Shown piece after piece: positions 16,355 through 38,336 of a stretch of DNA of 64,000 nt. Each line of letters opens with the position of its first letter. Within the stretch, counting starts at the first letter, position 1. This stretch comes from Escherichia coli (GTDB lineage Bacteria > Pseudomonadota > Gammaproteobacteria > Enterobacterales > Enterobacteriaceae). The DNA lies in assembly GCF_036507355.1 (NCBI RefSeq), contig NZ_AP027877.1; one strand, 5' to 3'. The translations under genes and the position numbers were made by a program. The notes beneath the pieces were generated by a model, which was given only the letters and a program-made list of their open reading frames with translations, was not told where the DNA came from and did not search any database.

Positions 16355-16360
16355 TACCAG

Positions 16361-17375: not shown

Positions 17376-18875
17376 ATGAGCATCTTGTACGAAGAGCGTC
17401 TTGATGGCGCTTTACCCGATGTCGACCGCACATCGGTACTGATGGCACTGCGTGAGCATGTCCCTGGACTTGAGATCCTGCATACCGATGAGGAGATCAT
17501 TCCTTACGAGTGTGACGGGTTGAGCGCGTATCGCACGCGTCCATTACTGGTTGTTCTGCCTAAGCAAATGGAACAGGTGACAGCGATTCTGGCTGTCTGC
17601 CATCGCCTGCGTGTACCGGTGGTGACCCGTGGTGCAGGCACCGGGCTTTCTGGTGGCGCGCTGCCGCTGGAAAAAGGTGTGTTGTTGGTGATGGCGCGCT
17701 TTAAAGAGATCCTCGACATTAATCCCGTTGGTCGCCGCGCGCGCGTGCAGCCAGGCGTGCGTAACCTGGCGATCTCCCAGGCCGTTGCACCGCATAATCT
17801 CTACTACGCACCGGATCCTTCCTCACAAATCGCCTGTTCCATTGGCGGCAACGTGGCGGAAAATGCCGGTGGCGTCCACTGCCTGAAATATGGTCTGACC
17901 GTACATAACCTGCTGAAAATTGAAGTGCAAACGCTGGATGGCGAGGCACTGACGCTGGGATCGGATGCGCTGGATTCGCCTGGTTTTGACCTGCTGGCGT
18001 TGTTCACCGGATCGGAAGGTATGCTCGGCGTGACCACCGAAGTGACGGTAAAACTGCTGCCGAAGCCGCCCGTGGCGCGGGTTCTGTTAGCAAGCTTTGA
18101 CTCGGTAGAAAAAGCCGGACTTGCGGTTGGTGACATCATCGCCAATGGCATTATCCCCGGCGGGCTGGAGATGATGGATAACCTGTCGATCCGCGCGGCG
18201 GAAGATTTTATTCATGCCGGTTATCCCGTCGACGCCGAAGCGATTTTGTTATGCGAGCTGGACGGCGTGGAGTCTGACGTACAGGAAGACTGCGAGCGGG
18301 TTAACGACATCTTGTTGAAAGCGGGCGCGACTGACGTCCGTCTGGCACAGGACGAAGCAGAGCGCGTACGTTTCTGGGCCGGTCGCAAAAATGCGTTCCC
18401 GGCGGTAGGACGTATCTCCCCGGATTACTACTGCATGGATGGCACCATCCCGCGTCGCGCCCTGCCTGGCGTACTGGAAGGCATTGCTCGTTTATCGCAG
18501 CAATATGATTTACGTGTTGCCAACGTCTTTCATGCCGGAGATGGCAACATGCACCCGTTAATCCTTTTCGATGCCAACGAACCCGGTGAATTTGCCCGCG
18601 CGGAAGAGCTGGGCGGGAAGATCCTCGAACTCTGCGTTGAAGTTGGCGGCAGCATCAGTGGGGAACATGGCATCGGGCGAGAAAAAATCAATCAAATGTG
18701 CGCCCAGTTCAATAGCGATGAAATCACGACCTTCCATGCGGTCAAGGCGGCGTTTGACCCCGATGGTTTGCTGAACCCTGGGAAAAACATTCCCACGCTA
18801 CACCGCTGTGCTGAATTTGGTGCCATGCATGTGCATCACGGTCATTTACCTTTTCCTGAACTGGAGCGCTTCTGA
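17376..18875 (+). CDS. glcD: Glycolate oxidase FAD-binding subunit GlcD
   Basis: 499 aa; FAD-binding PCMH-type domain motifs; operon context. Confidence 0.93.
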   Translation: MSILYEERLDGALPDVDRTSVLMALREHVPGLEILHTDEEIIPYECDGLSAYRTRPLLVVLPKQMEQVTAILAVCHRLRVPVVTRGAGTGLSGGALPLEKGVLLVMARFKEILDINPVGRRARVQPGVRNLAISQAVAPHNLYYAPDPSSQIACSIGGNVAENAGGVHCLKYGLTVHNLLKIEVQTLDGEALTLGSDALDSPGFDLLALFTGSEGMLGVTTEVTVKLLPKPPVARVLLASFDSVEKAGLAVGDIIANGIIPGGLEMMDNLSIRAAEDFIHAGYPVDAEAILLCELDGVESDVQEDCERVNDILLKAGATDVRLAQDEAERVRFWAGRKNAFPAVGRISPDYYCMDGTIPRRALPGVLEGIARLSQQYDLRVANVFHAGDGNMHPLILFDANEPGEFARAEELGGKILELCVEVGGSISGEHGIGREKINQMCAQFNSDEITTFHAVKAAFDPDGLLNPGKNIPTLHRCAEFGAMHVHHGHLPFPELERF

Positions 18876-19927
18876 TGCTACGCGAGTGTGATTACAGTCA
18901 GGCGCTGCTGGAGCAGGTGAATCAGGCAATTAGCGATAAAACGCCGCTGGTGATTCAGGGCAGCAATAGCAAAGCCTTTTTAGGTCGCCCAGTCACCGGG
19001 CAAACGCTGGATGTGCGTTGTCATCGCGGCATTGTTAATTACGACCCGACCGAGCTGGTGATAACCGCTCGTGCCGGAACGCCGCTGGTGGCGATTGAAG
19101 CGGCGCTGGAGAGCGCCGGGCAAATGCTTCCCTGCGAGCCGCCGCATTATGGTGAAGAAGCCACCTGGGGCGGGATGGTCGCCTGCGGGCTGGCGGGGCC
19201 GCGTCGCCCGTGGAGCGGTTCGGTCCGCGATTTTGTCCTCGGCACGCGCATCATTACCGGCGCTGGAAAACATCTGCGTTTTGGTGGTGAAGTGATGAAA
19301 AACGTTGCCGGATACGATCTCTCACGGTTAATGGCCGGAAGCTACGGTTGTCTTGGCGTGCTCACTGAAATCTCAATGAAAGTGTTACCGCGACCGCGCG
19401 CCTCCCTGAGCCTGCGTCGGGAAATCAGCCTGCAAGAAGCCATGAGTGAAATCGCCGAGTGGCAACTCCAGCCATTACCCATTAGTGGCTTATGTTACTT
19501 CGACAATGCGTTGTGGATCCGCCTTGAGGGCGGCGAAGGATCGGTAAAAGCAGCGCGTGAACTGCTGGGTGGCGAAGAGGTTGCGGGTCAGTTCTGGCAG
19601 CAATTGCGTGAACAACAACTGCCGTTCTTCTCGTTACCAGGTACCTTATGGCGCATTTCATTACCCAGCGATGCGCCGATGATGGATTTACCCGGCGAGC
19701 AACTGATCGACTGGGGCGGGGCGTTACGCTGGCTGAAATCGACAGCCGAGGACAATCAAATCCATCGCATCGCCCGCAACGCTGGCGGTCATGCGACCCG
19801 CTTTAGTGCCGGAGATGGTGGCTTTGCCCCGCTATCGGCTCCTTTATTCCGCTATCACCAGCAGCTTAAACAGCAGCTCGACCCTTGCGGCGTGTTTAAC
19901 CCCGGTCGCATGTACGCGGAACTTTGA
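18875..19927 (+). CDS. glcE: Glycolate oxidase subunit GlcE
   Basis: 350 aa; start overlaps the glcD stop. Confidence 0.92.
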   Translation: MLRECDYSQALLEQVNQAISDKTPLVIQGSNSKAFLGRPVTGQTLDVRCHRGIVNYDPTELVITARAGTPLVAIEAALESAGQMLPCEPPHYGEEATWGGMVACGLAGPRRPWSGSVRDFVLGTRIITGAGKHLRFGGEVMKNVAGYDLSRLMAGSYGCLGVLTEISMKVLPRPRASLSLRREISLQEAMSEIAEWQLQPLPISGLCYFDNALWIRLEGGEGSVKAARELLGGEEVAGQFWQQLREQQLPFFSLPGTLWRISLPSDAPMMDLPGEQLIDWGGALRWLKSTAEDNQIHRIARNAGGHATRFSAGDGGFAPLSAPLFRYHQQLKQQLDPCGVFNPGRMYAEL

Positions 19928-19937
19928 GGAGCAGGCT

Positions 19938-21161
19938 ATGCAAACCCAATTAACTGAAGAGATGCGGCAGAACGCGCGCGCGCTGGAAGCCGACAGCATC
20001 CTGCGCGCCTGTGTTCACTGCGGATTTTGTACCGCAACCTGCCCAACCTATCAGCTTCTGGGCGATGAACTGGACGGGCCGCGCGGGCGCATCTATCTGA
20101 TTAAACAGGTGCTGGAAGGCAACGAAGTCACGCTTAAAACACAGGAGCATCTCGATCGCTGCCTCACTTGCCGCAATTGTGAAACCACCTGTCCTTCTGG
20201 TGTGCGCTATCACAATTTGCTGGATATCGGGCGTGATATTGTCGAGCAGAAAGTGAAACGCCCACTGCCGGAGCGAATACTGCGCGAAGGATTGCGCCAG
20301 GTAGTGCCGCGTCCGGCGGTCTTCCGTGCGCTGACGCAGGTAGGGCTGGTGCTGCGACCGTTTTTACCGGAACAGGTCAGAGCAAAACTGCCTGCTGAAA
20401 CGGTGAAAGCTAAACCGCGTCCGCCGCTGCGCCATAAGCGTCGGGTTTTAATGCTGGAAGGCTGCGCCCAGCCTACGCTTTCGCCCAACACCAACGCGGC
20501 AACTGCGCGAGTGCTGGATCGTCTGGGGATCAGCGTCATGCCAGCTAACGAAGCAGGCTGTTGTGGCGCGGTAGACTATCACCTTAATGCGCAGGAGAAA
20601 GGGCTGGCACGGGCGCGCAATAATATTGATGCCTGGTGGCCCGCGATTGAAGCAGGTGCCGAGGCAATTTTGCAAACCGCCAGCGGTTGCGGCGCGTTTG
20701 TCAAAGAGTATGGGCAGATGCTGAAAAACGATGCGTTATATGCCGATAAAGCGCGTCAGGTCAGTGAACTGGCGGTCGATTTAGTCGAACTTCTGCGCAA
20801 GGAACCGCTGGAAAAACTGGCAATTCGCGGGGATAAAAAACTGGCCTTCCACTGCCCGTGTACCCTACAACATGCGCAAAAGCTGAACGGCGAAGTGGAA
20901 AAAGTGTTGCTTCGTCTTGGATTTACCTTAACGGACGTTCCCGACAGCCATCTGTGCTGCGGTTCAGCGGGAACATATGCGTTAACGCATCCCGATCTGG
21001 CACGCCAGCTGCGGGATAACAAAATGAATGCGCTGGAAAGCGGCAAACCGGAAATGATCGTCACCGCCAACATTGGTTGCCAGACGCATCTGGCGAGCGC
21101 CGGTCGTACCTCTGTGCGCCACTGGATTGAAATTGTAGAACAAGCCCTTGAAAAGGAATAA
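19938..21161 (+). CDS. glcF: Glycolate oxidase iron-sulfur subunit GlcF (start at MQTQLTEE)
   Basis: Two CxxCxxCxxxCP ferredoxin-type motifs (CVHCGFCTATCP, CLTCRNCETTCP); 407 aa. Confidence 0.9.
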   Translation: MQTQLTEEMRQNARALEADSILRACVHCGFCTATCPTYQLLGDELDGPRGRIYLIKQVLEGNEVTLKTQEHLDRCLTCRNCETTCPSGVRYHNLLDIGRDIVEQKVKRPLPERILREGLRQVVPRPAVFRALTQVGLVLRPFLPEQVRAKLPAETVKAKPRPPLRHKRRVLMLEGCAQPTLSPNTNAATARVLDRLGISVMPANEAGCCGAVDYHLNAQEKGLARARNNIDAWWPAIEAGAEAILQTASGCGAFVKEYGQMLKNDALYADKARQVSELAVDLVELLRKEPLEKLAIRGDKKLAFHCPCTLQHAQKLNGEVEKVLLRLGFTLTDVPDSHLCCGSAGTYALTHPDLARQLRDNKMNALESGKPEMIVTANIGCQTHLASAGRTSVRHWIEIVEQALEKE

Positions 21162-21165
21162 AAAA

Positions 21166-21570
21166 ATGAAAACTAAAGTCATTCTTAGCCAGCAAATGGC
21201 GAGTGCAATTATTGCCGCAGGTCAGGAAGAGGCGCAGAAAAATAACTGGTCTGTTTCCATTGCTGTTGCCGATGACGGCGGTCATCTGCTGGCGTTAAGT
21301 CGCATGGACGATTGCGCGCCGATTGCGGCTTACATCTCCCAGGAGAAAGCGCGTACCGCCGCGCTGGGGCGTCGTGAAACTAAGGGCTATGAAGAGATGG
21401 TGAACAACGGACGTACCGCGTTCGTGACTGCGCCGTTATTAACGTCGCTGGAAGGCGGCGTACCGGTTGTTGTTGATGGGCAAATTATTGGTGCCGTGGG
21501 CGTTTCTGGTTTAACCGGAGCACAGGATGCGCAGGTCGCGAAAGCGGCAGCAGCGGTGTTGGCGAAATAA
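21166..21570 (+). CDS. glcG: GlcG (heme-binding-like protein)
   Basis: 134 aa starting MKTKVILSQQ; operon position. Confidence 0.88.
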   Translation: MKTKVILSQQMASAIIAAGQEEAQKNNWSVSIAVADDGGHLLALSRMDDCAPIAAYISQEKARTAALGRRETKGYEEMVNNGRTAFVTAPLLTSLEGGVPVVVDGQIIGAVGVSGLTGAQDAQVAKAAAAVLAK

Positions 21571-21591
21571 GCGAAAACGAGGAGATAAACA

Positions 21592-23763
21592 ATGAGTCAA
21601 ACCATAACCCAGGGCCGTTTACGCATTGACGCCAATTTTAAACGTTTTGTGGATGAAGAAGTTTTGCCGGGAACAGGGCTGGACGCTGCGGCGTTCTGGC
21701 GCAATTTTGATGAGATCGTTCACGATCTGGCGCCAGAAAATCGTCAATTACTGGCAGAACGCGATCGCATTCAGGCGGCGCTGGACGATTGGCATCGCAG
21801 CAATCCGGGTCCGGTAAAAGACAAAGCGGCCTATAAATCTTTCCTGCGTGAACTGGGCTACCTGGTGCCGCAACCGGAGCGCGTGACGGTGGAAACCACG
21901 GGCATTGACAGCGAAATCACCAGTCAGGCGGGGCCACAGCTGGTGGTTCCGGCAATGAACGCCCGCTACGCGCTGAACGCGGCGAACGCTCGCTGGGGCT
22001 CACTGTACGATGCGTTATACGGCAGCGACATCATTCCGCAGGAAGGGGCGATGGTCAGCGGCTACGATCCGCAGCGCGGTGAGCAGGTTATCGCCTGGGT
22101 TCGGCGTTTCCTCGATGAATCACTACCGCTGGAAAACGGCAGCTATCAGGATGTGGTGGCGTTTAAGGTAGTTGATAAACAATTACGCATCCAGTTGAAA
22201 AATGGTAAAGAAACCACGTTACGTACCCCGGCGCAGTTTGTCGGTTACCGTGGCAATGCCGCTGCGCCGTCCTGCATTTTGCTGAAAAATAACGGCCTGC
22301 ATATTGAGCTGCAAATCGATGCCAACGGGCGGATTGGCAAAGACGATCCGGCGCACATCAACGATGTTATCGTCGAAGCGGCCATCAGTACCATTCTCGA
22401 CTGCGAAGATTCGGTCGCGGCGGTTGATGCGGAAGATAAAATCCTGCTGTACCGCAATCTGCTGGGCCTGATGCAGGGGACTCTGCAAGAGAAAATGGAG
22501 AAAAACGGTCGACAAATCGTGCGTAAACTGAATGACGATCGTCATTACACCGCCGCCGATGGCTCTGAAATTTCTCTGCACGGACGCTCGCTGCTGTTTA
22601 TCCGCAACGTGGGTCATTTGATGACCATTCCTGTGATTTGGGACAGCGAAGGCAATGAAATCCCGGAAGGCATTCTTGATGGCGTCATGACTGGCGCGAT
22701 TGCCCTCTATGATTTAAAAGTGCAGAAAAACTCGCGCACTGGCAGCGTCTATATTGTGAAACCGAAAATGCACGGTCCGCAGGAAGTGGCGTTCGCCAAC
22801 AAACTGTTTACCCGCATTGAGACAATGCTCGGTATGGCACCGAATACCCTGAAAATGGGCATTATGGATGAAGAACGTCGGACCTCGCTGAACTTGCGTA
22901 GCTGTATCGCTCAGGCGCGCAACCGCGTGGCGTTCATCAATACAGGTTTCCTCGACCGTACCGGCGATGAAATGCATTCGGTGATGGAAGCTGGCCCGAT
23001 GCTGCGTAAAAAACAGATGAAATCGACGCCGTGGATCAAAGCCTACGAGCGCAATAACGTGCTTTCCGGTCTGTTCTGTGGGCTGCGCGGTAAAGCGCAA
23101 ATCGGCAAAGGCATGTGGGCAATGCCGGATCTGATGGCGGACATGTACAGCCAGAAGGGCGATCAGTTGCGTGCCGGGGCGAACACGGCCTGGGTTCCGT
23201 CACCAACCGCCGCCACGCTGCATGCGCTGCATTACCACCAAACCAACGTACAGAGCGTGCAAGCTAACATTGCTCAGACCGAGTTCAATGCTGAATTTGA
23301 ACCGCTGCTGGACGATCTGCTGACCATTCCGGTTGCTGAAAACGCTAACTGGTCGGCGCAAGAGATCCAACAAGAGCTGGATAACAACGTGCAGGGGATT
23401 CTGGGTTACGTAGTGCGTTGGGTAGAGCAGGGGATTGGTTGTTCAAAAGTGCCGGACATTCACAACGTGGCGCTGATGGAAGACCGCGCAACGCTGCGCA
23501 TCTCCAGCCAGCATATCGCCAACTGGTTACGCCACGGCATTCTGACCAAAGAACAGGTGCAGGCATCGCTGGAGAACATGGCGAAAGTGGTTGATCAGCA
23601 AAACGCTGGCGATCCGGCTTATCGTCCAATGGTGGGGAATTTCGCTAACTCGTGTGCCTTTAAAGCTGCCAGTGATTTAATCTTCCTCGGTGTGAAACAG
23701 CCAAACGGCTATACCGAACCGTTATTACACGCCTGGCGTTTACGCGAAAAAGAAAGTCATTAA
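21592..23763 (+). CDS. glcB: Malate synthase G
   Basis: 723 aa; N-terminus [31 protein letters not shown] matches recalled GlcB. Confidence 0.95.
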
Positions 23764-23769
23764 TAGCGT

Positions 23770-23810
23770 CAAAAAAAGCCCCGGCAAGTTTTATTGTCGG
23801 GGCTATTATA
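23770..23810 (+). terminator. Putative rho-independent terminator after glcB
   Basis: agccccg ... cggggct hairpin flanked by A/T runs. Confidence 0.45.
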
Positions 23811-24118
23811 GTAACTGCGGTAGTACATTTATCCCGGAAATAACCGGAGCGATTATCAGGGTTTAACAATATTAAATACCCGTAGCGCATCACTAGCGGG
23901 ATTAAAACAATAATATGGACATCTTAACGATACTCTGCGCCTGCGTGTGCGGAACAGAAACCCTTACCCGATATACTTGTTATGCCAAAGGTAGCAATTG
24001 CGTTAGCAGCGTACTGTTGCTGTAAAGTATAACGCCTATATTTTACAGTTCAGTCCTCTTTTGCTTATTACAACCTTAATCATATCAAGCATATAAAGAT
24101 AATAAGAGACTGAACAAT

Positions 24119-25801
24119 ATGGTTACCTGGACCCAAATGTATATGCCGATGGGAGGACTGGGGCTATCCGCTCTGGTTGCCCTGATCCCAATAATATTCT
24201 TCTTCGTTGCACTTGCGGTATTACGTCTGAAAGGACATGTCGCCGGAGCGATAACCCTTATATTATCTATCCTGATTGCGATATTCGCCTTTAAAATGCC
24301 GATTGATATGGCATTTGCTGCTGCGGGCTATGGCTTTATTTATGGTTTATGGCCAATTGCGTGGATTATTGTCGCGGCGGTGTTCCTGTATAAATTAACC
24401 GTTGCCAGCGGACAGTTCGATATTATCCGCAGCTCGGTTATCTCCATCACCGACGATCAGCGTTTGCAGGTGTTACTGATTGGTTTCTCCTTTGGTGCGT
24501 TGCTGGAAGGAGCGGCTGGCTTTGGTGCGCCGGTGGCGATTACCGGTGCGCTGCTGGTGGGCCTGGGCTTCAAACCGTTATACGCGGCGGGGCTGTGTCT
24601 GATTGCCAATACTGCGCCGGTGGCGTTTGGTGCGTTGGGCGTGCCGATTCTGGTCGCCGGTCAGGTAACGGGAATCGATCCGTTCCACATTGGCGCAATG
24701 GCGGGACGTCAGTTACCGTTCCTGTCGGTTCTTGTGCCGTTCTGGCTGGTAGCAATGATGGACGGCTGGAAAGGGGTGAAAGAGACGTGGCCAGCGGCGC
24801 TGGTTGCTGGGGGAAGCTTCGCTGTCACTCAGTTCTTTACCTCTAATTATATTGGTCCGGAACTGCCGGATATTACTTCGGCGCTGGTGAGTATCGTCTC
24901 ACTCGCTTTATTCCTTAAAGTCTGGCGGCCGAAAAATACCGAAACGGCAATCAGCATGGGACAATCCGCAGGTGCGATGGTGGTAAATAAGCCATCTTCT
25001 GGCGGTCCCGTACCTTCAGAATATAGTCTGGGGCAAATCATTCGAGCGTGGTCACCGTTTTTAATCTTAACGGTGCTGGTCACCATCTGGACCATGAAGC
25101 CGTTTAAAGCGTTATTTGCTCCGGGCGGCGTGTTTTATTCACTGGTGATTAATTTCCAGATCCCTCATTTGCATCAACAAGTGTTGAAAGCGGCACCCAT
25201 TGTCGCCCAACCAACGCCAATGGATGCGGTGTTTAAATTCGACCCCCTCTCGGCTGGCGGCACCGCTATTTTTATTGCGGCGATTATCTCTATCTTCATC
25301 CTCGGCGTGGGCATCAAGAAAGGGATTGGCGTCTTTGCCGAAACGCTAATTAGTCTGAAGTGGCCGATATTGTCGATTGGCATGGTGCTGGCGTTCGCCT
25401 TCGTCACCAACTATTCCGGCATGTCCACCACGCTGGCGCTGGTACTGGCAGGTACAGGCGTGATGTTCCCGTTCTTCTCACCGTTCCTCGGTTGGCTGGG
25501 GGTATTCCTTACCGGCTCGGACACTTCTTCAAACGCCCTGTTTGGTTCACTGCAATCGACCACGGCGCAGCAAATCAACGTCTCTGACACTCTGCTGGTG
25601 GCAGCAAATACCAGCGGCGGCGTAACTGGCAAGATGATCTCCCCGCAATCTATCGCCGTGGCCTGCGCCGCGACGGGCATGGTGGGCCGAGAATCTGAAC
25701 TGTTCCGCTACACCGTGAAGCACAGTCTGATTTTTGCCAGCGTTATCGGCATTATCACGCTGCTGCAGGCGTATGTGTTTACTGGAATGTTAGTCTCGTA
25801 A
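24119..25801 (+). CDS. glcA: Glycolate/lactate permease GlcA
   Basis: 560-aa LctP-family transporter; operon context. Confidence 0.92.
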
Positions 25802-25810
25802 GTCAATAAT

Positions 25811-25850
25811 GCCGGATGAAGGTAAATATCATCCGGCTTTCCATTTGTTT
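25811..25850 (+). terminator. Hairpin plus T-rich tract after glcA
   Basis: gccggatga ... tcatccggc stem followed by tttccatttgttt. Confidence 0.4.
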
Positions 25851-26176
25851 GTCGTTTATCTCGCCAGGGAACCGTTTTTACGATTGGCTTCTTAATACAT
25901 AGTCTCCGTTTTACAATGCAAATTGTTTAATATTTATACGTCTGAGCTTCTGTGCTGGTTATAAAGCACCCACTTTCATGAGATCAATTTTAGTATGTTA
26001 TTACATTGCTACGTCTGTTCTTTTCATGACGAATGGCGTTTTTTCTCTTGTTTGTATTTTTCACGAGAGCAATGAGCAGATCAAAATTCCCAAAAACATA
26101 AGATTATTCGCAATGAATCGCCACGGGTTTAACAGACACCTCAGAGTCATTTAAGATGGCTTAAAGAGAGGTGCCC

Positions 26177-26455
26177 ATGAGCGGTAAGCGTTATCCCGAA
26201 GAGTTTAAAATTGAAGCAGTCAAACAGGTTGTTGATCGCGGTTATTCTGTTGCCAGCGTTGCAACACGTCTCGATATCACCACCCACAGCCTTTACGCCT
26301 GGATAAAGAAGTACGGTCCGGATTCTTCCGCTAATAAAGAACAGTCAGATGCTCAGGCCGAGATCCGCCGTCTCCAGAAAGAGCTGAAGCGGGTTACCGA
26401 CGAACGGGACATATTAAAAAAAGCCGCGGCGTACTTCGCAAAGCTGTCCGACTGA
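26177..26455 (+). CDS. IS3-family transposase OrfA (HTH)
   Basis: MSGKRYPEEFKIEAVKQV... HTH and leucine-zipper-like region ending ...KKAAAYFAK, typical of IS3 OrfA. Confidence 0.8.
   Translation: MSGKRYPEEFKIEAVKQVVDRGYSVASVATRLDITTHSLYAWIKKYGPDSSANKEQSDAQAEIRRLQKELKRVTDERDILKKAAAYFAKLSD
26413..26421 (+). promoter_or_regulatory. Candidate programmed -1 ribosomal frameshift site (A-run) for an OrfAB fusion
   Basis: ttaaaaaaag near the end of orfA; orfB lies in the -1 frame relative to orfA. Confidence 0.5.
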
Positions 26456-26511
26456 GGTACGCCTTTATCCGTGACAACACCTGTTGCTGGCCTGTTCGCC
26501 TGCTCTGTCGG

Positions 26512-27324
26512 GTGCTGGATGTTCATCCCAGTGGTTTTTACGCCTGGCTTCAGCAGCCGCATTCACAACGCCATCAGGCAGACCTGAGGCTGACAGGGCA
26601 GATTAAACAGTTCTGGCTGGAATCGGGATGCGTCTATGGTTATCGCAAAATCCATCTGGATCTGCGGGACAGCGGGCAACAGTGCGGAGTGAACAGAGTC
26701 TGGCGACTGATGAAACGTGTCGGGATAAAGGCTCAGGTCGGATACCGGAGCCCGCGGGCACGTAAAGGCGAGGCCAGTATCGTGTCGCCCAACAGGCTCC
26801 AGCGACAGTTCAATCCGGATGCTCCGGATAAGCGTTGGGTAACGGACATAACCTACATCAGGACCCACGAAGGCTGGCTGTATCTTGCCGTGGTTGTTGA
26901 TCTGTTCTCACGCAAAATTATCGGCTGGTCCATGCAATCCCGGATGACAAAGGACATTGTCCTGAACGCACTGCTGATGGCTGTATGGCGCCGTAATCCC
27001 CAAAAACAGGTGCTGGTTCATTCGGATCAGGGCAGTCAGTACACAAGCCATGAGTGGCAGTCGTTCCTGAAATCACACGGCCTGGAGGGCAGCATGAGCC
27101 GTCGCGGTAACTGCCATGATAATGCGGTTGCAGAAAGCTTTTTCCAGTTGTTGAAACGCGAACGGATAAAGAAAAAGATCTACGGAACGCGGGAAGAAGC
27201 CCGCAGCGATATTTTTGATTACATCGAAATGTTTTATAACAGTAAGCGTCGGCATGGTTCCAGCGATCAGATGTCACCGACAGAATATGAAAACCAGTAT
27301 TATCAACGGCTCGGAAGTGTCTAG
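26512..27324 (+). CDS. IS3-family transposase OrfB (DDE/RNase-H-fold integrase core); probably made as an OrfAB fusion starting upstream
   Basis: DDE-type motifs (WVTDITYI..., HSDQGSQYTS, NCHDNAVAESFF). Confidence 0.8.
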   Translation: MLDVHPSGFYAWLQQPHSQRHQADLRLTGQIKQFWLESGCVYGYRKIHLDLRDSGQQCGVNRVWRLMKRVGIKAQVGYRSPRARKGEASIVSPNRLQRQFNPDAPDKRWVTDITYIRTHEGWLYLAVVVDLFSRKIIGWSMQSRMTKDIVLNALLMAVWRRNPQKQVLVHSDQGSQYTSHEWQSFLKSHGLEGSMSRRGNCHDNAVAESFFQLLKRERIKKKIYGTREEARSDIFDYIEMFYNSKRRHGSSDQMSPTEYENQYYQRLGSV

Positions 27325-27342
27325 ATTACCCGTGGCGATTCA

Positions 27343-27555
27343 GTCATCAGTAATTACGCTGTCATCCAGTTTCGCATAACAGATACTGTCATCACCGGCT
27401 TCAATATAGCTGGAAAAATTCTCACTGATGAAGCGGTAGAAAAGGGCACCGAGTACATACTGTTTAAAATCCCATCCATCTACGGAGCCTCTGACATCAT
27501 TGGCAATGGCCCAGATTTGGCGGTGTAGCTCTGCACGCTGCTGAAGGCTTGTCAT
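27343..27555 (-). pseudogene. hsdM: Type I restriction-modification methyltransferase HsdM (type IC, EcoR124I-like), N-terminal 71 codons only, truncated by the IS3-family element
   Basis: MTSLQQRAELHRQIWAIANDVRGSVDGWDFKQYVLGALFYRFISENFSSYIEAGDDSICYAKLDDSVITDD is near-identical to the recalled EcoR124I HsdM N-terminus; the ORF's stop is the terminal TGA/TCA of the IS inverted repeat. Confidence 0.75.
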
Positions 27556-27758
27556 TTTGTATCCTGTTGTATGATTCTTAAGTACTGTTATTGGCCCGAT
27601 TTTATCGTAATTTCATATTGATGACAGGCTTTGTATGTCATACGTTGCACTGAGAGTTCGTTTGCCCGGTTGTGTAGGCAGCGCTCTTTCAGCCAGGTCA
27701 GTAGAAACGTTGCGCTGACGATAAATACTGAAGCCCCAATACCATCGGGGCTGAACGT

Positions 27759-29636
27759 TCAGTCGGTGAGAATTTCTTCATCCGTATCCATTGTGGATGG
27801 TGATGAATCTATTTTTGTTGTAAGAAATACCCGATTCAGTAGTCTTTGCTTCAGGGCGTTTCTTCGCTCATTGTAGAACTCCGGGAAGCGACTGAACTCA
27901 ATATTTTCATCTGAAACTAACAGCATTGATGGCGAATAGTTGTTTGATGGCTGAGATAGCCATTGTTTCAGGGAAGTATCCTGTTTACTTATATTCTGAG
28001 AGTGATTCAGTAAATGAAGATTAGGTATGGTGTCCCAGTGCTCCGGATTTTCATAAAAGCTGAGGTTCTCTGGTGTATTCGCAACATAATCTAATTTTTC
28101 AAGATATTTCTTTGAAAAATGATTTCTTGGGTGAAGGTGATCAATATGAAACACCTCGGTCGGATTCATTTCAGGGAACAGAAGATGCAATAGTGCGCGG
28201 CAACGACCTTCGCCATATCTGATATTGAGAAGGCTTTCGATGTATTCGTCGTCAAATCTGAGGTCTTTATTCGAGCCTTTATATCTGTCAATAATCTTCT
28301 CAAGAGGAAAGTGAATATCTGAAAGACTATTTTTCATTACATCTCTGATACTCGTGAGTAGCGCATCTGCCTGGCTTCCAAAGATCCCTTTCAGAAGTAC
28401 CATGTAAAACCACTGGCTAATTACTGAGCGTTCATTGTGGTTTTTATTCAGGAGATTAATCGTTGTATATAATGGATGTCCACTGGTTTGCTTTTTGTAA
28501 AGCCAGTAGACCACAGGAATGACTGCATTTTTAGATATCAAAGACTGTGGATTGATGCCGAATCGCCTGATAAGAATAAAGGTCTCCTTGATACAGGATT
28601 TTATTTCAGACCATTGTTGTTGTATCTTACCGACCTCCTCTGAAGTGAAGTTTTTTACTTTGAACCGGACGTCAGAGTCAATAAGCATCAGGCTGGTTTT
28701 TAAGAACCAGTCTCTTTCAATATAAAAACCCATTTCATTATTCTGATAAATGTTTTTTGTCAGTTCATCCAGTTCTTTTCTGAAATCACCCTGCCAGTGC
28801 GCTACCGCTATTGACATCAGTAAGTCTGAAAACTCAAGTTTTGTCCCCCCGCTGTTCGTGCGGATGAAAACATCCAGCACATGATCAATGTCCTGACTGC
28901 TCTCATTGAAGTAGTGGATAAGATTCTCAGTTCTTATCTTGGTATAAAGTTTAAGCAGAGTTTTTCTGGAAAATTCACTGGAAATGAGATCTCTTTTTTC
29001 AAGTTCTGGTACGACAACGTTAAATAAAATATCATCAGGCGAATCATGTTGCTCGTATTTGAATATTTCGTGCAGGCAGAACCAGTGATGTTTGTTATCG
29101 GCAAGTGAATCAGTATATTGCTTCTCGGTCAGGAACCTGAAGTTATACTTCATCATGAGCTCATCGTCTGACTTAAGTGGCGCGGTTAAATCGACGTAAA
29201 GCTTTCTGGGTGGCAGGATGCGATCATCCTGTGCCGAAGGCCACCACATCCGGGGCTGTTTATACGCATACGTTCCACACAATCCAATATATAATGATGT
29301 GAGACGCTGCTGACCATCAATCACGGCCTTGAAATCATGAAACCCAGCATTTGTTGCTACGCAGGGGTTTTCTTCATTAAATCGCTGACAGTATTCTTTC
29401 AGGAACTCATAGAATTTGTAATCATTTTTAATACTGGCACTACGGATATCCCACATCATGAAAGAGTTTATCGGGTAGTCTCGCATGATGGAATCAAACA
29501 GCAAACATATCTGACTGCTGCTCCAGACGAACTTCCTCTGAATTGCAGGCAGAAGATAGTGGCGTAAATTAATTGAATCTATCGCTTGTTTTATCGTTAT
29601 TGCTTTTTCATACTGGCCAGCCATCATAAACCTCAT
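27759..29636 (-). CDS. GmrSD-family DUF262 (ParB-like, DGQQR motif) / DUF1524 (His-Me finger) protein; putative type IV modification-dependent restriction endonuclease
   Basis: N-terminal IKQAIDSI...YLLPAIQRKFVWS and IDGQQRLTSL motifs (DUF262); C-terminal FHIDHLHPRNH (DUF1524-like HNH); 625 aa; AT-rich. Confidence 0.75.
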   Translation of the reverse strand: MRFMMAGQYEKAITIKQAIDSINLRHYLLPAIQRKFVWSSSQICLLFDSIMRDYPINSFMMWDIRSASIKNDYKFYEFLKEYCQRFNEENPCVATNAGFHDFKAVIDGQQRLTSLYIGLCGTYAYKQPRMWWPSAQDDRILPPRKLYVDLTAPLKSDDELMMKYNFRFLTEKQYTDSLADNKHHWFCLHEIFKYEQHDSPDDILFNVVVPELEKRDLISSEFSRKTLLKLYTKIRTENLIHYFNESSQDIDHVLDVFIRTNSGGTKLEFSDLLMSIAVAHWQGDFRKELDELTKNIYQNNEMGFYIERDWFLKTSLMLIDSDVRFKVKNFTSEEVGKIQQQWSEIKSCIKETFILIRRFGINPQSLISKNAVIPVVYWLYKKQTSGHPLYTTINLLNKNHNERSVISQWFYMVLLKGIFGSQADALLTSIRDVMKNSLSDIHFPLEKIIDRYKGSNKDLRFDDEYIESLLNIRYGEGRCRALLHLLFPEMNPTEVFHIDHLHPRNHFSKKYLEKLDYVANTPENLSFYENPEHWDTIPNLHLLNHSQNISKQDTSLKQWLSQPSNNYSPSMLLVSDENIEFSRFPEFYNERRNALKQRLLNRVFLTTKIDSSPSTMDTDEEILTD

Positions 29637-29697
29637 ATGTTATATTAGCTGGCCTATTTTAATTTATTGCGTGTCGGTAGTACAGTCTTTGCACAAA

Positions 29698-30027
29698 CTA
29701 ATTTATGCAATGGAAAAGCTGACGGCTCGGTTTGTGTTTTTCATTCGGGTAGACTCGCATTGCGGATGCACAAAGTGATGAAACCTGTCTTGCTATATTT
29801 TTACCGAAGTTAACAAGTAGGCCGTGCTTTATTTTTTCACCCTCTGCCCTGATGCTGATGACAAAGCTGAACTGATATACGATTACCTCAATGAGGTCAT
29901 TGCCAAATGTTATGATGGCGGCGTTGTTTATTTCATATTCATAATCCCTCAGGTCAGTGTTAAGTCTTGCTGTTGCATTTACAAGTGCGTATTCTTTATC
30001 GATAATCATAACTTTCTCACTTATCAT
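29698..30027 (-). CDS. Hypothetical protein (109 aa) immediately upstream of the GmrSD-like gene
   Basis: ATG-initiated ORF on the same strand, 61 bp upstream of the DUF262 gene; no family recognised. Confidence 0.4.
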   Translation of the reverse strand: MISEKVMIIDKEYALVNATARLNTDLRDYEYEINNAAIITFGNDLIEVIVYQFSFVISIRAEGEKIKHGLLVNFGKNIARQVSSLCASAMRVYPNEKHKPSRQLFHCIN

Positions 30028-30067
30028 GTTAATGTGATTTAATCATCACTAATAATATGTTGTGATT

Positions 30068-30781
30068 TTAATTACGATTATTCGTCTGTTTACTCCCGTA
30101 ATGCATTATCTGATGAATAATGTTCATGTGGGGTAAGGCTTCCATAAAGTCAGACTGTTCAATCAGCGAAATGAGTGTGTTATCGATCTCAAACGTTGTA
30201 TCCGGTAATACCTCAACCAGCCTGATTCGGGACAGGGAAATAACGAACACGCCCGATGACGTACATCCGGCAAGAAACCACTCCGCATGGCTGCAAAGCA
30301 GACGATAGGGATGAACGGTATGGCTGACGTTTTCGTCGGTTCTGATACGCACCTTGGTCTGGTTAAGTATGGCGAGCGTTAGTCTGCTGAAATCACCGAA
30401 CAGCGTGGGTTTCTGGCGCGGCTCCGGGAGCATAATCCGGTAGGGTGAAGGGTGCTCCCCGTCAAGCAGAAGGCTCAGCAGTTTGGCATCCATCGCGGGT
30501 AACAGACGGTCAAGATGCAGCAGTCTCGCCAGTATCTTCATATCTCGTTCCGTGCGGCGACGAAAGTAATGTGAGGCAAGCTGATACACGCCGTTGCTCT
30601 GTTCAATATCAAGGTAGGTCAGACGGACGTTGAAATCCCGCCGCAGCGTTCGCGTTGTCACTCCAAATTCTTCTGCCAGCGTCCCGATATGCAGCTTTTC
30701 ACCCTGAAACAAACGGCTCAGGATGATGGAAAGGCGGGTTGCCAGTCTGTCATGTTCGTTTTCTTGTGTTATCAGCGTCAT
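30068..30781 (-). CDS. HTH plus WYL-like domain transcriptional regulator (BrxR/CapW-like candidate)
   Basis: N-terminal HTH_11-like segment (RLSIILSRLFQGEKLHIGTLAEEFGVTTRTLRRDF) followed by a ligand-binding-like domain; sits upstream of a defence gene. Confidence 0.6.
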   Translation of the reverse strand: MTLITQENEHDRLATRLSIILSRLFQGEKLHIGTLAEEFGVTTRTLRRDFNVRLTYLDIEQSNGVYQLASHYFRRRTERDMKILARLLHLDRLLPAMDAKLLSLLLDGEHPSPYRIMLPEPRQKPTLFGDFSRLTLAILNQTKVRIRTDENVSHTVHPYRLLCSHAEWFLAGCTSSGVFVISLSRIRLVEVLPDTTFEIDNTLISLIEQSDFMEALPHMNIIHQIMHYGSKQTNNRN

Positions 30782-30883
30782 ACATCATTTCCGAATTTAG
30801 CCGGGAAATGATGCCAGCAGTAGCGGACAGGATTTGTCCACCCTCTGAAGTTTTTTAAAGTCTGAATACCTTAAATGTAAGTG

Positions 30884-31633
30884 CTAAACGTCAGTATTCT
30901 CAGGTGAATAAAGATGCTTCTGGCGCATGTAGGCAATAAAAATGCAGGATGGTAGCGTCACCCGGTATGCGGGACCGGCTAAATCAATCAGCAGCCAGAG
31001 AGAACTGAGCACCCAGCCCACAGGACCGGCAAAAGCGCCCATGGTACGCGTCAGCATGGCATTTCCTGCAACGGTCAGCCCTCTGCCTAACAGGGCTTTC
31101 GCCACACCATTTGTGACAACAAGTGCCATCTGATAGGCCGCAAACCCGGATGTTTTTATCCCCGCCTGGATTGCCATGGTCAGCAACTCCGGCGTGGGGT
31201 TGCTGTAGCCTGTCTGCAATTCTTCCGCCACGGTCTTTAACTGATCGGGCGTCATCTTCTCAAGGCTTTTCTCCAGGATCTTCATCAGCAGATTCATTTC
31301 AATGGTTTCAACACTGGATTTGTTGTTGTAGTTCACCTTCATTTTATCGCAGGCATCGGTGAGAATTTCCCGGTACGGCACCCCTTTACCCCAGCGGAGC
31401 AGCGTGGCAAAGCTGTTCGCCCCAAACGTCTGAACCTCGGCGGCAATGGCATCCCAGTAGCGCGGGTGGTTGGGCTTGTGTTTTTTATACTGAGGATCAT
31501 AGGTCAGCGTTTCCGTGATGCGTGCCAGTCCGTCTTTCGGATCGCAGATAAGCACAGAAACCAGTAAATCCAGATCGTCACGATGGCAGTGGCGCAGAAA
31601 CTCAAGGTCGGGGTCGTGTCGGTAGGTAGCCAT
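30884..31633 (-). CDS. YaaW-like (UPF0174/DUF3944) protein
   Basis: Resembles recalled YaaW (LEFLRHC..DLDLLV, GPVGWVLSSLWLLIDLAGPAYRVT); 249 aa. Confidence 0.5.
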   Translation of the reverse strand: MATYRHDPDLEFLRHCHRDDLDLLVSVLICDPKDGLARITETLTYDPQYKKHKPNHPRYWDAIAAEVQTFGANSFATLLRWGKGVPYREILTDACDKMKVNYNNKSSVETIEMNLLMKILEKSLEKMTPDQLKTVAEELQTGYSNPTPELLTMAIQAGIKTSGFAAYQMALVVTNGVAKALLGRGLTVAGNAMLTRTMGAFAGPVGWVLSSLWLLIDLAGPAYRVTLPSCIFIAYMRQKHLYSPENTDV

Positions 31634-31774
31634 ATTTCACCTCATTGCAGATATTGGACCTGACAGTTTAAGGAAGCCACCGGACAGGGCTTGTCCGCCT
31701 GAAAAACAAAAAAGTAAAAAAAACCTGCCGAAAGCAGGTTTCTGTTCACCGGATGGAGGTATAACGCGTCGGGA

Positions 31775-32161
31775 TTACTTTCCGCGCCATTCCTTTTCCA
31801 CTTTATCCGCAAAAGCATCGCACTGCCGGGCATATTCCGGGTTATAGAGCAGCTCCGACTGCGAAAGCTGCATGGCGGTCATGCTGCCGTTACGGGCATT
31901 TGATTCGAGCCAGGTTCTGCCATAGGTTTTGTTCATCACCTGAAGTACCCGGTTGAATACCGGTCCGTTGAAGCGGGCATTGAGATTAACGCCTTTTACC
32001 TGAAGGCCGCTGTCACTGGTCTGGGTCAGGCGGGTGGAGTACATCGCGCAGAAGGTCGAGTTGGTTATCATCTGAGCGTCAGCCTGCTCGTCGGCGAACG
32101 CGCTGTGGCTGAAGGCGGAAAGCAGAATTGTGGCGGTTAACAGTTTTAAAATTTTCATCAT
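31775..32161 (-). CDS. Exported hypothetical protein (signal peptide)
   Basis: N-terminal MMKILKLLTATILLSAFSHSAFA signal peptide; 128 aa. Confidence 0.5.
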   Translation of the reverse strand: MMKILKLLTATILLSAFSHSAFADEQADAQMITNSTFCAMYSTRLTQTSDSGLQVKGVNLNARFNGPVFNRVLQVMNKTYGRTWLESNARNGSMTAMQLSQSELLYNPEYARQCDAFADKVEKEWRGK

Positions 32162-32235
32162 GTTCCCTTATGGATTGAAAAGCGGAGACAGCCTGCCATA
32201 CAGGGTGGTCAGGAGATGTCCGGCAGAGAAAAAAG

Positions 32236-32475
32236 TCAGGGTTTCAGCGAGGGAGCCAGTCGCCAGCGGTGAGGGCCAGCAGATTCGAGCACAAAGGCCA
32301 GTTGAGCGAGGTCCCGTCTTGCGGTCCGGGGAGATACGTCAAACTGCCGGATGATGTAGCGAACAGATATTGTCTGACCGTAAAACAGCACCATGGTCAG
32401 CCGGATGAGCCGTTCTCCCTGTCCGGTAGCGTGTTGCCTGCGACGATTAACGTTCATCGTTGCCATACGCGCCAT
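32236..32475 (-). pseudogene. Short HTH-only ORF resembling the N-terminal domain of a DeoR/WYL-type regulator (possible remnant)
   Basis: GERLIRLTMVLFYGQTISVRYIIRQFDVSPRTARRDLAQL is HTH_11-like; only 79 aa and overlaps the 3' end of the neighbouring gene. Confidence 0.35.
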
Positions 32476-32918
32476 CGGTCCCCTTTCTGAAAAGAATCGA
32501 GGTGTCTGGCAAGCCAGATATCAGGGCATGAATTGCCGGTAACGCAGCGGGCAGTAAACCGGTGGCAGTTAAAGTCGAGCAGGCTGTAGGGATAGCGCTG
32601 ACCCACTGCCGCCTTTGCCCGTTCAGCGGCCTGCGCACAACCCTGAGGCGTCAAATCCATACAATCGGTATACACCGAGATAGCGGAGTTCCAGCCATCG
32701 AGCCGGTCAAGAAACCCTTTAGCCTTACTTTTGATAACGGTTCCATCGCCATCAAGATGAACAATATCGCCGTTACCCACATAGATACCGCTGTGTGCGG
32801 CAAGGCCAAAAAGCAGTTCGCACTGCACGATACCACCGTAAGCCGGTTCATCGACGCAGGAGAGAATGCAGTTATCGATAAATGAATCCACGAAGTTCAG
32901 CAGCAGAAGCCGGTACAT
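32454..32918 (-). CDS. LRAT/NlpC-P60-superfamily protein (start at MYRLLLL)
   Basis: His-containing HSGIYVGNGDIVH followed by a C-terminal NCHRF motif resembling the LRAT catalytic-Cys NCEHF box. Confidence 0.5.
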   Translation of the reverse strand: MYRLLLLNFVDSFIDNCILSCVDEPAYGGIVQCELLFGLAAHSGIYVGNGDIVHLDGDGTVIKSKAKGFLDRLDGWNSAISVYTDCMDLTPQGCAQAAERAKAAVGQRYPYSLLDFNCHRFTARCVTGNSCPDIWLARHLDSFQKGDRWRVWQR

Positions 32919-32976
32919 AACATTCAGTTCCTTACTACGGGGGAGAGGGGGGATGCGGGGGAAACGTAGTGAACAC

Positions 32977-33405
32977 TCAGCTTTCCCACAACGTACGGAC
33001 CGTGAAAACCCCCATATCGTGGTAAGCCATAAAGTTACTTTCCCATAGCGACCAGAACTCACGGGCGTCGACATGAGAGATATCGCCACAACGGGAAAGC
33101 CACGTGTATTGTTGCGTCCAGCTCACATCGACATCTTTTTCAAGCTCAGGCCATGGATGCCCTGCATAATGAAAATCGGTGACGTAATCGAGCTGCCAGT
33201 CTTCTCCGGCAGGGATGAGGCGTATTTCGACCGGATGCCAGCCGCCCTTTTCCGGTGAGTATTCAGGGTCACGGAAGTTAATGGTTAATCCGGTGATGGG
33301 GTGACGATGAGGCGGTTTTTGCGCGAGGATATCCAGAAGCAGTTGGGTGAACGACCGGGAGAGAGGCAGCACATAGCCGCCCTGCAATATTACGGGTGAT
33401 GACAT
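32977..33405 (-). CDS. Hypothetical protein (142 aa)
   Basis: ATG ORF, same strand and closely spaced with neighbours; no family recognised. Confidence 0.45.
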   Translation of the reverse strand: MSSPVILQGGYVLPLSRSFTQLLLDILAQKPPHRHPITGLTINFRDPEYSPEKGGWHPVEIRLIPAGEDWQLDYVTDFHYAGHPWPELEKDVDVSWTQQYTWLSRCGDISHVDAREFWSLWESNFMAYHDMGVFTVRTLWES

Positions 33406-33451
33406 AGTGAATTTCCTGATTTTTGGTTAACAGAACACAGAAAAAGCGGGG

Positions 33452-33883
33452 TTAGTCCTGGCTGAGCGTAGCAAGCTGCGTCATACGATGCTGCCAGTCG
33501 GCATAGCAGCGGTGCATAAAGAGTCTGCTGCTGTCCGCTTCGATAAGGCAGATATCCGGACTTCTGAGTACGGCGGCAAGAAACCCGGCGTTGTTGGTGC
33601 TGCCCTGACCAAATAGTGGTCGAAACACACGCGACGGAAAGCTGTCCTGCTGCTGTTCAAGAATGGCGTGAATCGCATCAAGCGTTATCCATTCACGGGA
33701 GAACAGGCCTCCTTCGCCATTGGCGGTTAAGCGCAGGGCGAGGCTTCCGGTTTCATCCTCCTTACCCAGCTCATACGTCAGCAGTCCCTTACTGTGTGGA
33801 CTGATTTTCTCGGCTTCACCCCTGTAGAACACGGTATAGCTTTCGGTGACGGCGGCTTCGGTAGCGACTTTTTTCTTACTCAT
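33452..33883 (-). CDS. Hypothetical protein (143 aa)
   Basis: ORF whose start overlaps the stop of the upstream gene by 8 nt. Confidence 0.45.
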   Translation of the reverse strand: MSKKKVATEAAVTESYTVFYRGEAEKISPHSKGLLTYELGKEDETGSLALRLTANGEGGLFSREWITLDAIHAILEQQQDSFPSRVFRPLFGQGSTNNAGFLAAVLRSPDICLIEADSSRLFMHRCYADWQHRMTQLATLSQD

Positions 33884-34247
33884 GGTTCAGCGCCTCAATC
33901 AGGTTCTGGAGTTGAGTGATAACGGTCGTGTCCGGGAACACCAGATAGATACCCTGTCCGTTATCGCAGACGATACCGAGCAGGAGATACCAGCCATCAT
34001 CAAGTGCGGTGACGTATTCCGGGTTAGCCAGTGCCACTGCCAGCAGCGGGTCTTCGGGGAGGGTGTCATCGTGGTTGAGATGCCAGAGCAGGGTTCTTGT
34101 TTCTTTCCAGAAAGCAGTAAACAGGTCGATATCATCTACGGGGCCAAGAATTTCATTGCTGAGGGCTTCCAGCGCGGAGGCTGGCAGGTTGAGAAGGGAA
34201 ATACTGGTAGGGGTTGTGAGTTTGTACATAGTTATCTCCATCATCAA
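33876..34247 (-). CDS. Hypothetical protein (123 aa)
   Basis: First gene of a four-gene minus-strand cluster; no family recognised. Confidence 0.4.
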   Translation of the reverse strand: MMMEITMYKLTTPTSISLLNLPASALEALSNEILGPVDDIDLFTAFWKETRTLLWHLNHDDTLPEDPLLAVALANPEYVTALDDGWYLLLGIVCDNGQGIYLVFPDTTVITQLQNLIEALNHE

Positions 34248-34457
34248 TCGAATATCATGGAAATAATATGTGTCCGTTTTAAGGGCTATTACAGGCTTGG
34301 TGTGTTGGATTTGTTTTTCTTATTACGAACAAATAGCGACTGGCTCAGGCCGGGATTGTTTAGAGACAGATTCAGCATAGATTCGTAAAAATAAAAACTA
34401 TTAGCGCGAGATCCTCTGTTTATGCCGTGACAGTTAACTGATAGGAGGCTTGTTGGT

Positions 34458-35163
34458 TGGATTTGCCCCTATATTTCCAGACACCTGTTATCACTTAACC
34501 CATTACTGGCCCGCTGCCGCAGATATTCCCGTGGCGAGCGATAACCCAGCGCACTATGCGGATGCCATTCGTTATAATGCTCGAACGCCTCTGCAAGGTT
34601 CTTTGCTGCCGTTAACCCGTCTGGTTTGGGCATGATACTTATGTAGTCACGCTTTATCGTTTTCACGAAGCTCTCTGCTATTCCGTTACTCTCCGGACTC
34701 CGCACTGCCGTGTTCTTCGGTTCAAGTCCCAACATCCTGGCGAACTGACGTGTTTCATTCGCCCGGTAGCATGAACCATTATCCGTCAGCCACTCCACTG
34801 GAGACGCCGGAAGCTCGCTGCCAAAGCGGCGTTCCACTGCTCCCAGCATGACGTCCTGTACTGTTTCACTGTCGAAGCCACCCGTTGTGACCCCCCAGTG
34901 CAGTGCCTCACGGTCACAGCAGTCCAACGCGAACGTGACCCGCAGTTTTTCTCCGTTATCACAGCGGAACTCAAACCCGTCAGAGCACCATCGCTGATTA
35001 CTTTCTTTCACAGCCACTCTGCCGGTATGTGCCCGTTTCGATGGCGGTACAGCGGGTTTTCGCTCAAGCAACAGCGCATTCTGGCGCATGATCCGGTAAA
35101 CACGTTTGGCATTGATCGCAGGCATACCATCAAGTTCTGTTTGTCTGCGAAGCAGCGCCCATA
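34458..35163 (-). mobile_element. IS2 fragment (right-hand about 0.7 kb: 3' part of insD plus the right inverted repeat); the left half is missing
   Basis: tggatttgcccctatatttccagacacctgttatcacttaa at 34458-34498 matches the recalled IS2 right IR; the adjacent ORF matches InsD from [10 protein letters not shown] to ...NRCLEI. Confidence 0.85.
34469..35125 (-). pseudogene. insD: IS2 transposase InsD, C-terminal about 218 codons only
   Basis: Translation matches the recalled InsD C-terminal two-thirds; homology extends upstream to about 35163 ([12 protein letters not shown]) and then stops. Confidence 0.85.
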
Positions 35164-35636: not shown

Positions 35637-35717
35637 GTATAAGCATAACTATCCACAGGCAGGTTAGTTCCTTTTTCCCTGCACGCGATTTATCTGTTTT
35701 TAATTGAGGATTAGATA

Positions 35718-37643: not shown

Positions 37644-37818
37644 GAGGGAGCAGGAATAGAGATTAAATAATATAAGGTTAATTAAGATTTTCCGTGCCGT
37701 AATTTAAATTGTAGGATCCGGAAATATAATCTGAATGCTCAGAGGGCAGGTTGTGCACAAAATGGGCATTTAATTTTTTAATTATTCAACATATATATCA
37801 ACTAAAGGTAATTTTAAA

Positions 37819-38238: not shown

Positions 38239-38336
38239 GTTTATACTGGATTTTCACGTCAGTAACGAAATCGAAATTCGCACATGAAAACATCTATATC
38301 TATGAGGTAGTTACTTATCGATAAACGACTGTGAAA

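Follow-up and report, generated by a model that had tools for sequence, protein, structure and literature searches.

An intact IS3-family element at the apparent junction of a deletion between glcA and the pheV genomic island in Escherichia coli

An intact IS element of the IS3 family lies between the glcA region and the remnant of an hsdM gene in the 64,000-nucleotide stretch of Escherichia coli DNA analysed here (the window) and, judged by comparison with related genomes, it is the junction of a deletion and not the product of a simple insertion. In relatives, the sequences on its two sides belong to loci that do not adjoin each other, so that the element marks a rearrangement, and these two loci, which lie tens of kb apart in those relatives, are joined in the orientation that is expected for a deletion. 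We infer that about 10-65 kb were lost, depending on the content of the ancestor.

The IS element and its identity

The first-pass annotation had reported an IS3-family element at 26111-27345. The element is real, and the span given for it consists of the IS itself (26114-27342) plus three flanking bases on each side. Its features are as follows.

26114-27342, + strand: IS3-family IS, 1,229 bp, intact, 99.9% identical over its full length to other E. coli copies
26114-26151, + strand: left inverted repeat (IRL), opening with 5'-TG, from inverted-repeat detection, outer 15 bp perfect
26177-26455, + strand: orfA, Pfam HTH_Tnp_1 (E = 4e-20)
26416-26422, + strand: slippery A7 run inside orfA, in the frame TTA AAA AAA G, at the overlap of orfA and orfB
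26422-27324, + strand: orfB, in the -1 frame, DDE transposase, Pfam rve (E = 1.7e-33), HTH_21 and rve_2
27305-27342, + strand: right inverted repeat (IRR), closing with CA-3', from inverted-repeat detection

With an HTH OrfA, a DDE OrfB, a -1 frameshift site, and inverted repeats (IRs) of the TG...CA type, the element belongs to the IS3 family. Both orfA and orfB match the NCBIfam model transpos_IS3, for which a score of 358.7 bits was obtained against a cut-off of 160, with orfB matching over positions 90-369 (E = 3.9e-107). An A7 run in the frame TTA AAA AAA G is the usual type of slippery site in this family, and in the E. coli copies that are 99.9% identical to the IS in the window, PGAP fuses both frames at the A7 site and names the product 'IS3 family transposase, programmed frameshift'. 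The terminal IRs, which had been described as intact in the first-pass annotation, have 38-nt arms with 76% complementarity, and their outer 15 bp (TGAATCGCCACGGGT...ACCCGTGGCGATTCA) indeed pair perfectly, at 15 of 15 positions. The base that makes this 15-bp IR perfect is a C at 27327 in the IRR, where all of the other sampled copies (25 of 25) carry a T. By its sequence, the element looks transposition-competent.

Among 5,426 complete E. coli genomes, 178 contain full-length copies, and near-full-length copies are found on 702 enterobacterial plasmids; within the window, there is only one copy. The exact 33-bp left end is also present in Pantoea, Erwinia, Enterobacter, Kosakonia, Franconibacter, Klebsiella, Salmonella arizonae, and others, and in Pantoea sp. 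alder81, a collapsed-repeat contig of 1,229 bp represents the whole element.

The element is probably ISEhe3-like (ISfinder reference AF327445), a lead that comes from length, family and group, as well as host range. ISEhe3 was originally described from the pPATH plasmid of Pantoea agglomerans. It is a member of the IS51 group of the IS3 family with TG ends and a direct repeat of 3-4 bp (PMC10425158), and a 1,229-bp allele is on record (PMC11756799). The IS in the window is alike in its length of 1,229 bp, its family, its TG ends and direct-repeat length, and its enterobacterial host range, whereas the PGAP name of its transposase, 'IS3 family transposase', is only generic. The name ISEc52, which appears in the annotation of strain XJ34, was considered and rejected, as blastn returned no match of the XJ34 element to the IS in the window.

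Flanks from two separate loci

The features that adjoin the element on its two sides are listed below.

25802-26113, no strand: left flank, AT-rich intergenic DNA (36% GC) downstream of glcA, within which homology breaks in relatives
27343-27555, - strand: hsdM stump encoding HsdM residues 1-71, matching TIGR00497 positions 1-66 of 515 and Pfam HsdM_N
27343-46899, no strand: surviving part of the pheV island, collinear with the islands of GPEC1189 and AHM9C68I and supported by Pfam domains
27759-29636, - strand: DUF262/GmrSD_N gene, the first intact gene of the surviving island, Pfam GmrSD_N (E = 1.9e-33)
46900-46975, - strand: tRNA-Phe (pheV), the island attachment site, identified by ARAGORN

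On the left, glcA ends at 25801 and the IS begins 312 bp further downstream. Homology to most E. coli already ends at window positions 25839-25846, and from about 25847 onwards lineage-specific DNA follows that represents the start of the region upstream of a wHTH/tad-flp pilus locus. The segment at 25850-26113 (~270 bp) was found at 100% identity in 36 genomes, among them O145:H28 strains, TB06052, PapRG-06-5, XJ34, and 14EC033. In these matching genomes, the left-flank DNA opens a 1.4-kb intergenic region that leads to a winged-helix regulator and the tad/flp pilus locus; in TB06052, for example, the sequence runs on past the equivalent of 26113 into the wHTH and tad genes. The distance from the left-flank point to tRNA-Phe amounts to 53.7 kb in PapRG-06-5 and accommodates the tad locus, a fimbrial-type operon, and a complete T6SS.

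On the right, the IS runs directly into the hsdM stump, the stop codon of which is the terminal TGA of the IS. An intact hsdM comprises ~518 codons, and hsdS, hsdR, and additional genes come after it in the islands of GPEC1189 and AHM9C68I; no match to the hsdS or hsdR of these intact islands was found within the window. With just hsdM codons 1-71 left, the type I restriction-modification system is dead. The gene in question belongs to the pheV genomic island and is not the hsdM of K-12, and the DUF262 gene is found beside hsdM in the same position at three comparison loci. What survives of the island comprises two integrase genes, one of which is truncated, as well as a DUF927 gene, an IS2 fragment, and an ABC-3C cassette. 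It lies at the 3' end of pheV, as GI-pheV islands do, and a P4-type tyrosine integrase (domains Arm-DNA-bind_3 and Phage_integrase) is encoded at 38366-39553, separated by a 6.8-kb cassette from tRNA-Phe, which in turn sits between the island and yqgA/speC. A second copy of the pheV 3' 23-mer, that is, an attR, was not found in the window with up to 3 mismatches allowed, which is consistent with the deletion having removed the distal end of the island.

Missing target-site duplication and position of the IS ends

The sequence around the element reads ...TTATTCGCAA - IS - GTCATCAGTA..., with CAA on the left and GTC on the right, so that 0 of 3 bases agree at the expected target-site duplication (TSD) length of 3 bp. 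No direct repeat of 2-7 bp was found in the flanks, which bears out the earlier observation that the two flanking triplets differ. The element does yield 3-bp TSDs on simple insertion. An exact TSD of 3 bp (CCG, CGC, AAG, GGC, ATA, CTG, CTC, and ATA) borders eight of 25 other full-length copies at identical TGAATCG...CGATTCA ends, the chance expectation for such a match being 1 in 64. The TSD-less state is, at the same time, common for this element, as 17 of the 25 sampled copies are without an exact TSD (6 of 11 from complete E. coli genomes and 11 of 14 from species-representative genomes). In three other copies, the flanks agree at two of three bases, and these may represent decayed TSDs.

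Moving the IS ends in order to recover a TSD was ruled out, since other copies and both empty sites fix positions 26114 and 27342. The left end is given by the uninterrupted TB06052, homology to which covers window positions 10702-26113 and breaks at 26114, and the right end by GPEC1189 and AHM9C68I, the alignments of which begin exactly at 27343. By the first-pass annotation, a TSD appearing with redefined ends would have refuted the observation; none emerged, the ends being held in place by the eight copies with exact TSDs together with the empty sites.

Extent of the deletion

The window agrees in its order with the arrangement glcA - (tad...T6SS) - island - pheV of TB06052 and PapRG-06-5, and hsdM is oriented relative to pheV as it is in AHM9C68I. 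The missing DNA was not found anywhere else in the window. On the backbone side, the loss may amount to up to ~54 kb, comprising the tad pilus, the fimbrial operon, and the T6SS. The distal part of the island was lost with attR, hsdR, hsdS, and all of hsdM beyond codon 71, which corresponds to at least 9.4 kb, taken as the distance between the breakpoint and the distal integrase. If the ancestor had possessed both the full PapRG-06-5 backbone and the distal island of AHM9C68I, the deletion would have removed ~63 kb. The breadth of the range given at the outset reflects that the ancestor was perhaps already trimmed, since truncations have arisen independently in other strains that possess this backbone; the closest complete genome matches the core genes of the window at only 99.4%, too distant for a near-clonal comparator of the ancestral gene content.

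These comparisons also put the initial reading of the locus into perspective. The truncation of hsdM that had been recognized there is real, and the proposal of an IS-mediated rearrangement in place of a simple insertion is supported by flanks from loci that are far apart in relatives. Genes were indeed lost beside glcA, as had been suggested, but the proper comparator is the wHTH-tad-fimbrial-T6SS block and not K-12 (sslE/gsp side). The comparison with uninterrupted loci, likewise recommended, leads from the left flank into the tad/flp locus of TB06052 and from the right flank into the intact hsdM-hsdS-hsdR of GPEC1189 and AHM9C68I.

Mechanism

Homologous recombination between two direct IS copies appears to be the most likely route to the present arrangement, and we favour it with moderate confidence; its two-copy intermediate is postulated. 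The ancestral order would have been glcA, the wHTH-tad/flp pilus locus, the fimbrial operon, the T6SS, the distal pheV island (attR...hsdR-hsdS-hsdM-DUF262...), the integrase, and pheV. In a first step, IS copies in the same orientation would have come to reside at both sites, namely in hsdM (with the TSD GTC) and in the intergenic DNA after glcA (with the TSD CAA). In a second step, RecA-type recombination between these direct 1.2-kb repeats would have excised the interval and left a single hybrid IS copy that retains the left CAA and the right GTC. Such a route predicts the precursor junctions CGTCTTTAATGTC-TGAATCGCCACGG (hsdM into IRL) and CCGTGGCGATTCA-CAAAGCTGATTTTGC (IRR into the tad-upstream DNA), whereas a translocation or inversion would instead leave an IS copy elsewhere with ...AATGTC on its left or CAAAGCTGA... 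on its right. In the 5,426 complete E. coli genomes and the JGI metagenome contigs, neither a precursor with the IS at either site and its own TSD nor an identical junction in another genome was found.

The transposition chemistry of the family provides further context. Transposition of IS3-family elements by copy-out-paste-in proceeds via a circular intermediate and regenerates the donor site, and a review on the deletions linked to IS629 points out that this pathway does not directly yield adjacent deletions, for which an extra resolving step would be needed (bioRxiv 10.1101/2023.06.07.543989). For the rbs deletions linked to IS150, homologous recombination of two IS copies has been given as the cause (PMC4173774).

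Less probable, yet a serious contender, is a one-step adjacent deletion mediated by the transposase, in which a single pre-existing IS copy at either site transfers one of its ends to a target within its own molecule (strand transfer of the 'sloppy' or intramolecular type) and deletes the DNA in between, leaving one old and one new flank and no TSD. The end product would be the same as that observed, a model of this kind has been drawn for IS629, which is also an IS3-family element, and the failure to detect a two-copy precursor in the genomes and metagenome contigs searched speaks for it as well. The 17 of 25 TSD-less copies would fit a frequent non-canonical outcome and might even mean that this element gives rise to non-canonical, deletion-forming events unusually often; however, many TSD-less copies are equally expected from recombination among multiple copies.

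An assembly artefact, in which two direct IS copies with tad-T6SS-hsdRS between them were collapsed as a repeat and the interval was skipped, is predicted to give a false join that would look just like the junction. We consider this very improbable, however, because the 64-kb window is unbroken across both the IS and the IS2 fragment, because it is collinear with complete genomes on either side of the IS, and because several finished genomes have real deletions of this interval with IS elements at their borders. A simple insertion with a TSD that later mutated, or with mis-called ends, can practically be dismissed: the two-of-three matches in three other copies could be read as decay, but the copy in the window matches at none of the three bases, the homology of its flanks to different loci extends to the very ends of the IS, these ends coincide with those of the eight copies having exact TSDs, and the empty-site comparisons exclude a decayed TSD. 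The landing of an IS in an older deletion junction was likewise rejected, since a TSD would have formed.

IS-driven loss elsewhere in the glcA-pheV interval

Several other strains bear independent cuts in the glcA-pheV interval that were made by IS1 and IS629-like elements. In LR-50, sslE is joined at codon ~10 through IS1A to hsdM, 147 bp away from where the junction of the window lies, and in AHM9C68I, a pair of IS1 elements links a truncated pitB to the distal integrase of the island, the whole glc operon being gone. The tad region is truncated by IS1 in 14EC033 and XJ34, and the tad locus of O145:H28 RM13516 by an IS629-like element. A variant with 97.7% identity to the IS and the same orientation is found in BEN5202 and AR_0085, where it sits 11 bp further into hsdM and is itself truncated by IS30; as its sequence is not the same and its junction is displaced, this insertion represents an independent event.

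Three independent IS junctions lie within 147 bp of hsdM, namely those of the window (codon 71), of BEN5202/AR_0085, and of LR-50, and on the tad/sslE side, other strains show at least four more truncations bounded by IS elements. That the first ~360 bp of the island hsdM and the wider glcA-pheV interval form a true hot spot of IS-driven loss, and not a coincidence, nevertheless seems rather unlikely to us. The clustering of junctions in hsdM, in what is a small sample, may be due to selection for loss of the restriction system, to a regional target preference, or to chance. No IS911-style targeting of IR-like sequences was detected at the two hsdM sites that are 11 bp apart, where the best ungapped matches to IRL and IRR were no better than shuffled ones.

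Comparison with known systems

The rbs deletions associated with IS150 in the long-term evolution experiment with E. coli are alike in that an IS3-family IS is located at the deletion edge and one copy is left, and recombination between a resident and a second copy has been invoked as the mechanism (PMC4173774), as we favour for the window. These deletions were seen in real time and their ancestors are known, whereas the ancestor of the window had to be reconstructed from other strains; moreover, the deletion in the window is far larger and crosses the boundary of a genomic island. A further parallel is the IncC plasmid pT5282-Ct2, in which an ISEhe3 insertion is accompanied by a 24.5-kb backbone deletion (PMC6872532). 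This case is alike in the name of the element and in its place beside a multi-kb loss of backbone, and it concerns a plasmid, whereas the deletion described here is chromosomal.

GI-pheV islands occupy the same tRNA locus and are mosaics of IS-separated modules, whole modules of which have been lost in single events (PMC11537424), a loss that has been ascribed to the flanking IS elements (PMC11537424). In comparison, the deletion in the window also takes attR and tens of kb of backbone outside the island. Finally, the system of IS629 and the IS-excision enhancer (IEE) in EHEC, in which IEE promotes IS629 excision and deletions, is alike in that an IS3-family element is tied to genomic deletions. 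IEE events, however, remove the IS, whereas the IS in the window is fully retained and intact, and an IEE-type excision was rejected on this ground.

Significance

The arrangement is an already-known kind of IS-associated deletion and involves no new mechanism or element. It represents one more case of IS erosion in the pheV region and is mainly of value for annotation and strain biology. If the hot spot were true, it could reflect selection to shed type I restriction together with tad/T6SS while keeping DUF262/GmrSD, or else a local target preference of the IS. For the strain itself, the deletion explains why it is without the block of tad pilus, fimbrial, and T6SS genes that its relatives have between glcA and pheV, as well as the reduction of the type I restriction-modification system of the island to a 71-codon stump, and the island, being without attR, is probably no longer able to excise.

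Ends and Target-Site Duplications of the IS3-Family Element

The intact IS3-family element at the deletion scar (1,229 bp, probably ISEhe3-like) carries a C at window position 27327, within its right inverted repeat, where all 25 other sampled copies have a T; its right end accordingly reads ACCCGTGG, as compared to ATCCGTGG, ATCTGTGG, or ATCCGTAG elsewhere. With this C, the outer 15 bp of both ends are perfectly complementary. Among 25 other full-length copies (loci L007-L012, L021-L078, and L087-L091 from other genomes), an exact 3-bp target-site duplication was found in eight, and three more matched at two of the three bases. The raw share lacking an exact duplication (68 %, draft-assembly effects included) seems high for an element of the IS3 family.

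A variant with 97.7 % identity adjoins an hsdM stump in two further strains, BEN5202 and AR_0085, 11 bp deeper in the gene than the junction in the window:

L005 8144-9131, same orientation as the window copy: variant element in BEN5202
L006 8144-9131, same orientation as the window copy: variant element in AR_0085

In both strains, the variant is cut off by IS30 at element position 313, and the truncated form (313-1229) was found repeatedly, on many enterobacterial plasmids.

Further Rearrangement of the pheV Island

A second insertion sequence lies within the surviving part of the pheV genomic island:

34458-35163, minus strand: IS2 copy of which only the 3' ~706 bp are present
34469-35125: ORF within this remnant, encoding residues 84-301 of IS2 TnpB
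35106-35636: ORF for the C-terminus alone of a tyrosine integrase

Comparison with GPEC1189, a strain with intact island hsdM-hsdS-hsdR genes, showed that the IS2 remnant in the window takes the place of approximately 2.6 kb of that strain's island, comprising one hypothetical gene and the 5' portion of the tyrosine integrase. The site is a second IS-linked deletion in the same island that was truncated at the IS3-family element.

At the other end of the island, a four-gene ABC-3C (ABC-three-component) operon is flanked by the island integrase (38366-39553) on one side and by pheV on the other:

40067-46063, plus strand, GC content 38.5 %: genes for an MBL-fold protein, a trypsin-like protease with CTD4 domain, MComp1, and a 1,043-aa SMC/AAA_23 ATPase

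In AHM9C68I, likewise with intact island hsdM-hsdS-hsdR genes, this position holds no more than ~1.1 kb, with a single small hypothetical gene; the stretch between integrase and tRNA therefore appears to be a variable slot for cargo.

Accessory Block Upstream of glcC and Apparent Erosion of the glcA-pheV Interval

An accessory block (5800-14850) lies upstream of yghO and glcC, at a position where K-12 has other genes. From 10702 onward, the window is collinear with strain TB06052; ORF sizes, position, this collinearity, and the annotation of relatives suggest that the block corresponds to genes annotated in TB06052 and 14EC033, i. e., those for an LPS-biosynthesis protein, a YtfJ-family protein, extra lptF/lptG copies, serine palmitoyltransferase, an acyl carrier protein, an epimerase, and a fatty acyl-AMP ligase.

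In the glcA-pheV interval, five more independent IS-bounded truncations or deletions, involving IS1A, IS1B, and an IS629-like element, were found in other E. coli:

L001 8573-9643: LR-50
L013 8364-11846: AHM9C68I, which has lost the glc operon entirely
L014 21336-23170: 14EC033
L086 3263-12018: XJ34
L015 42248-44297: RM13516

Judged by the sequence comparisons, IS-mediated erosion appears to recur in the glcA-pheV interval.
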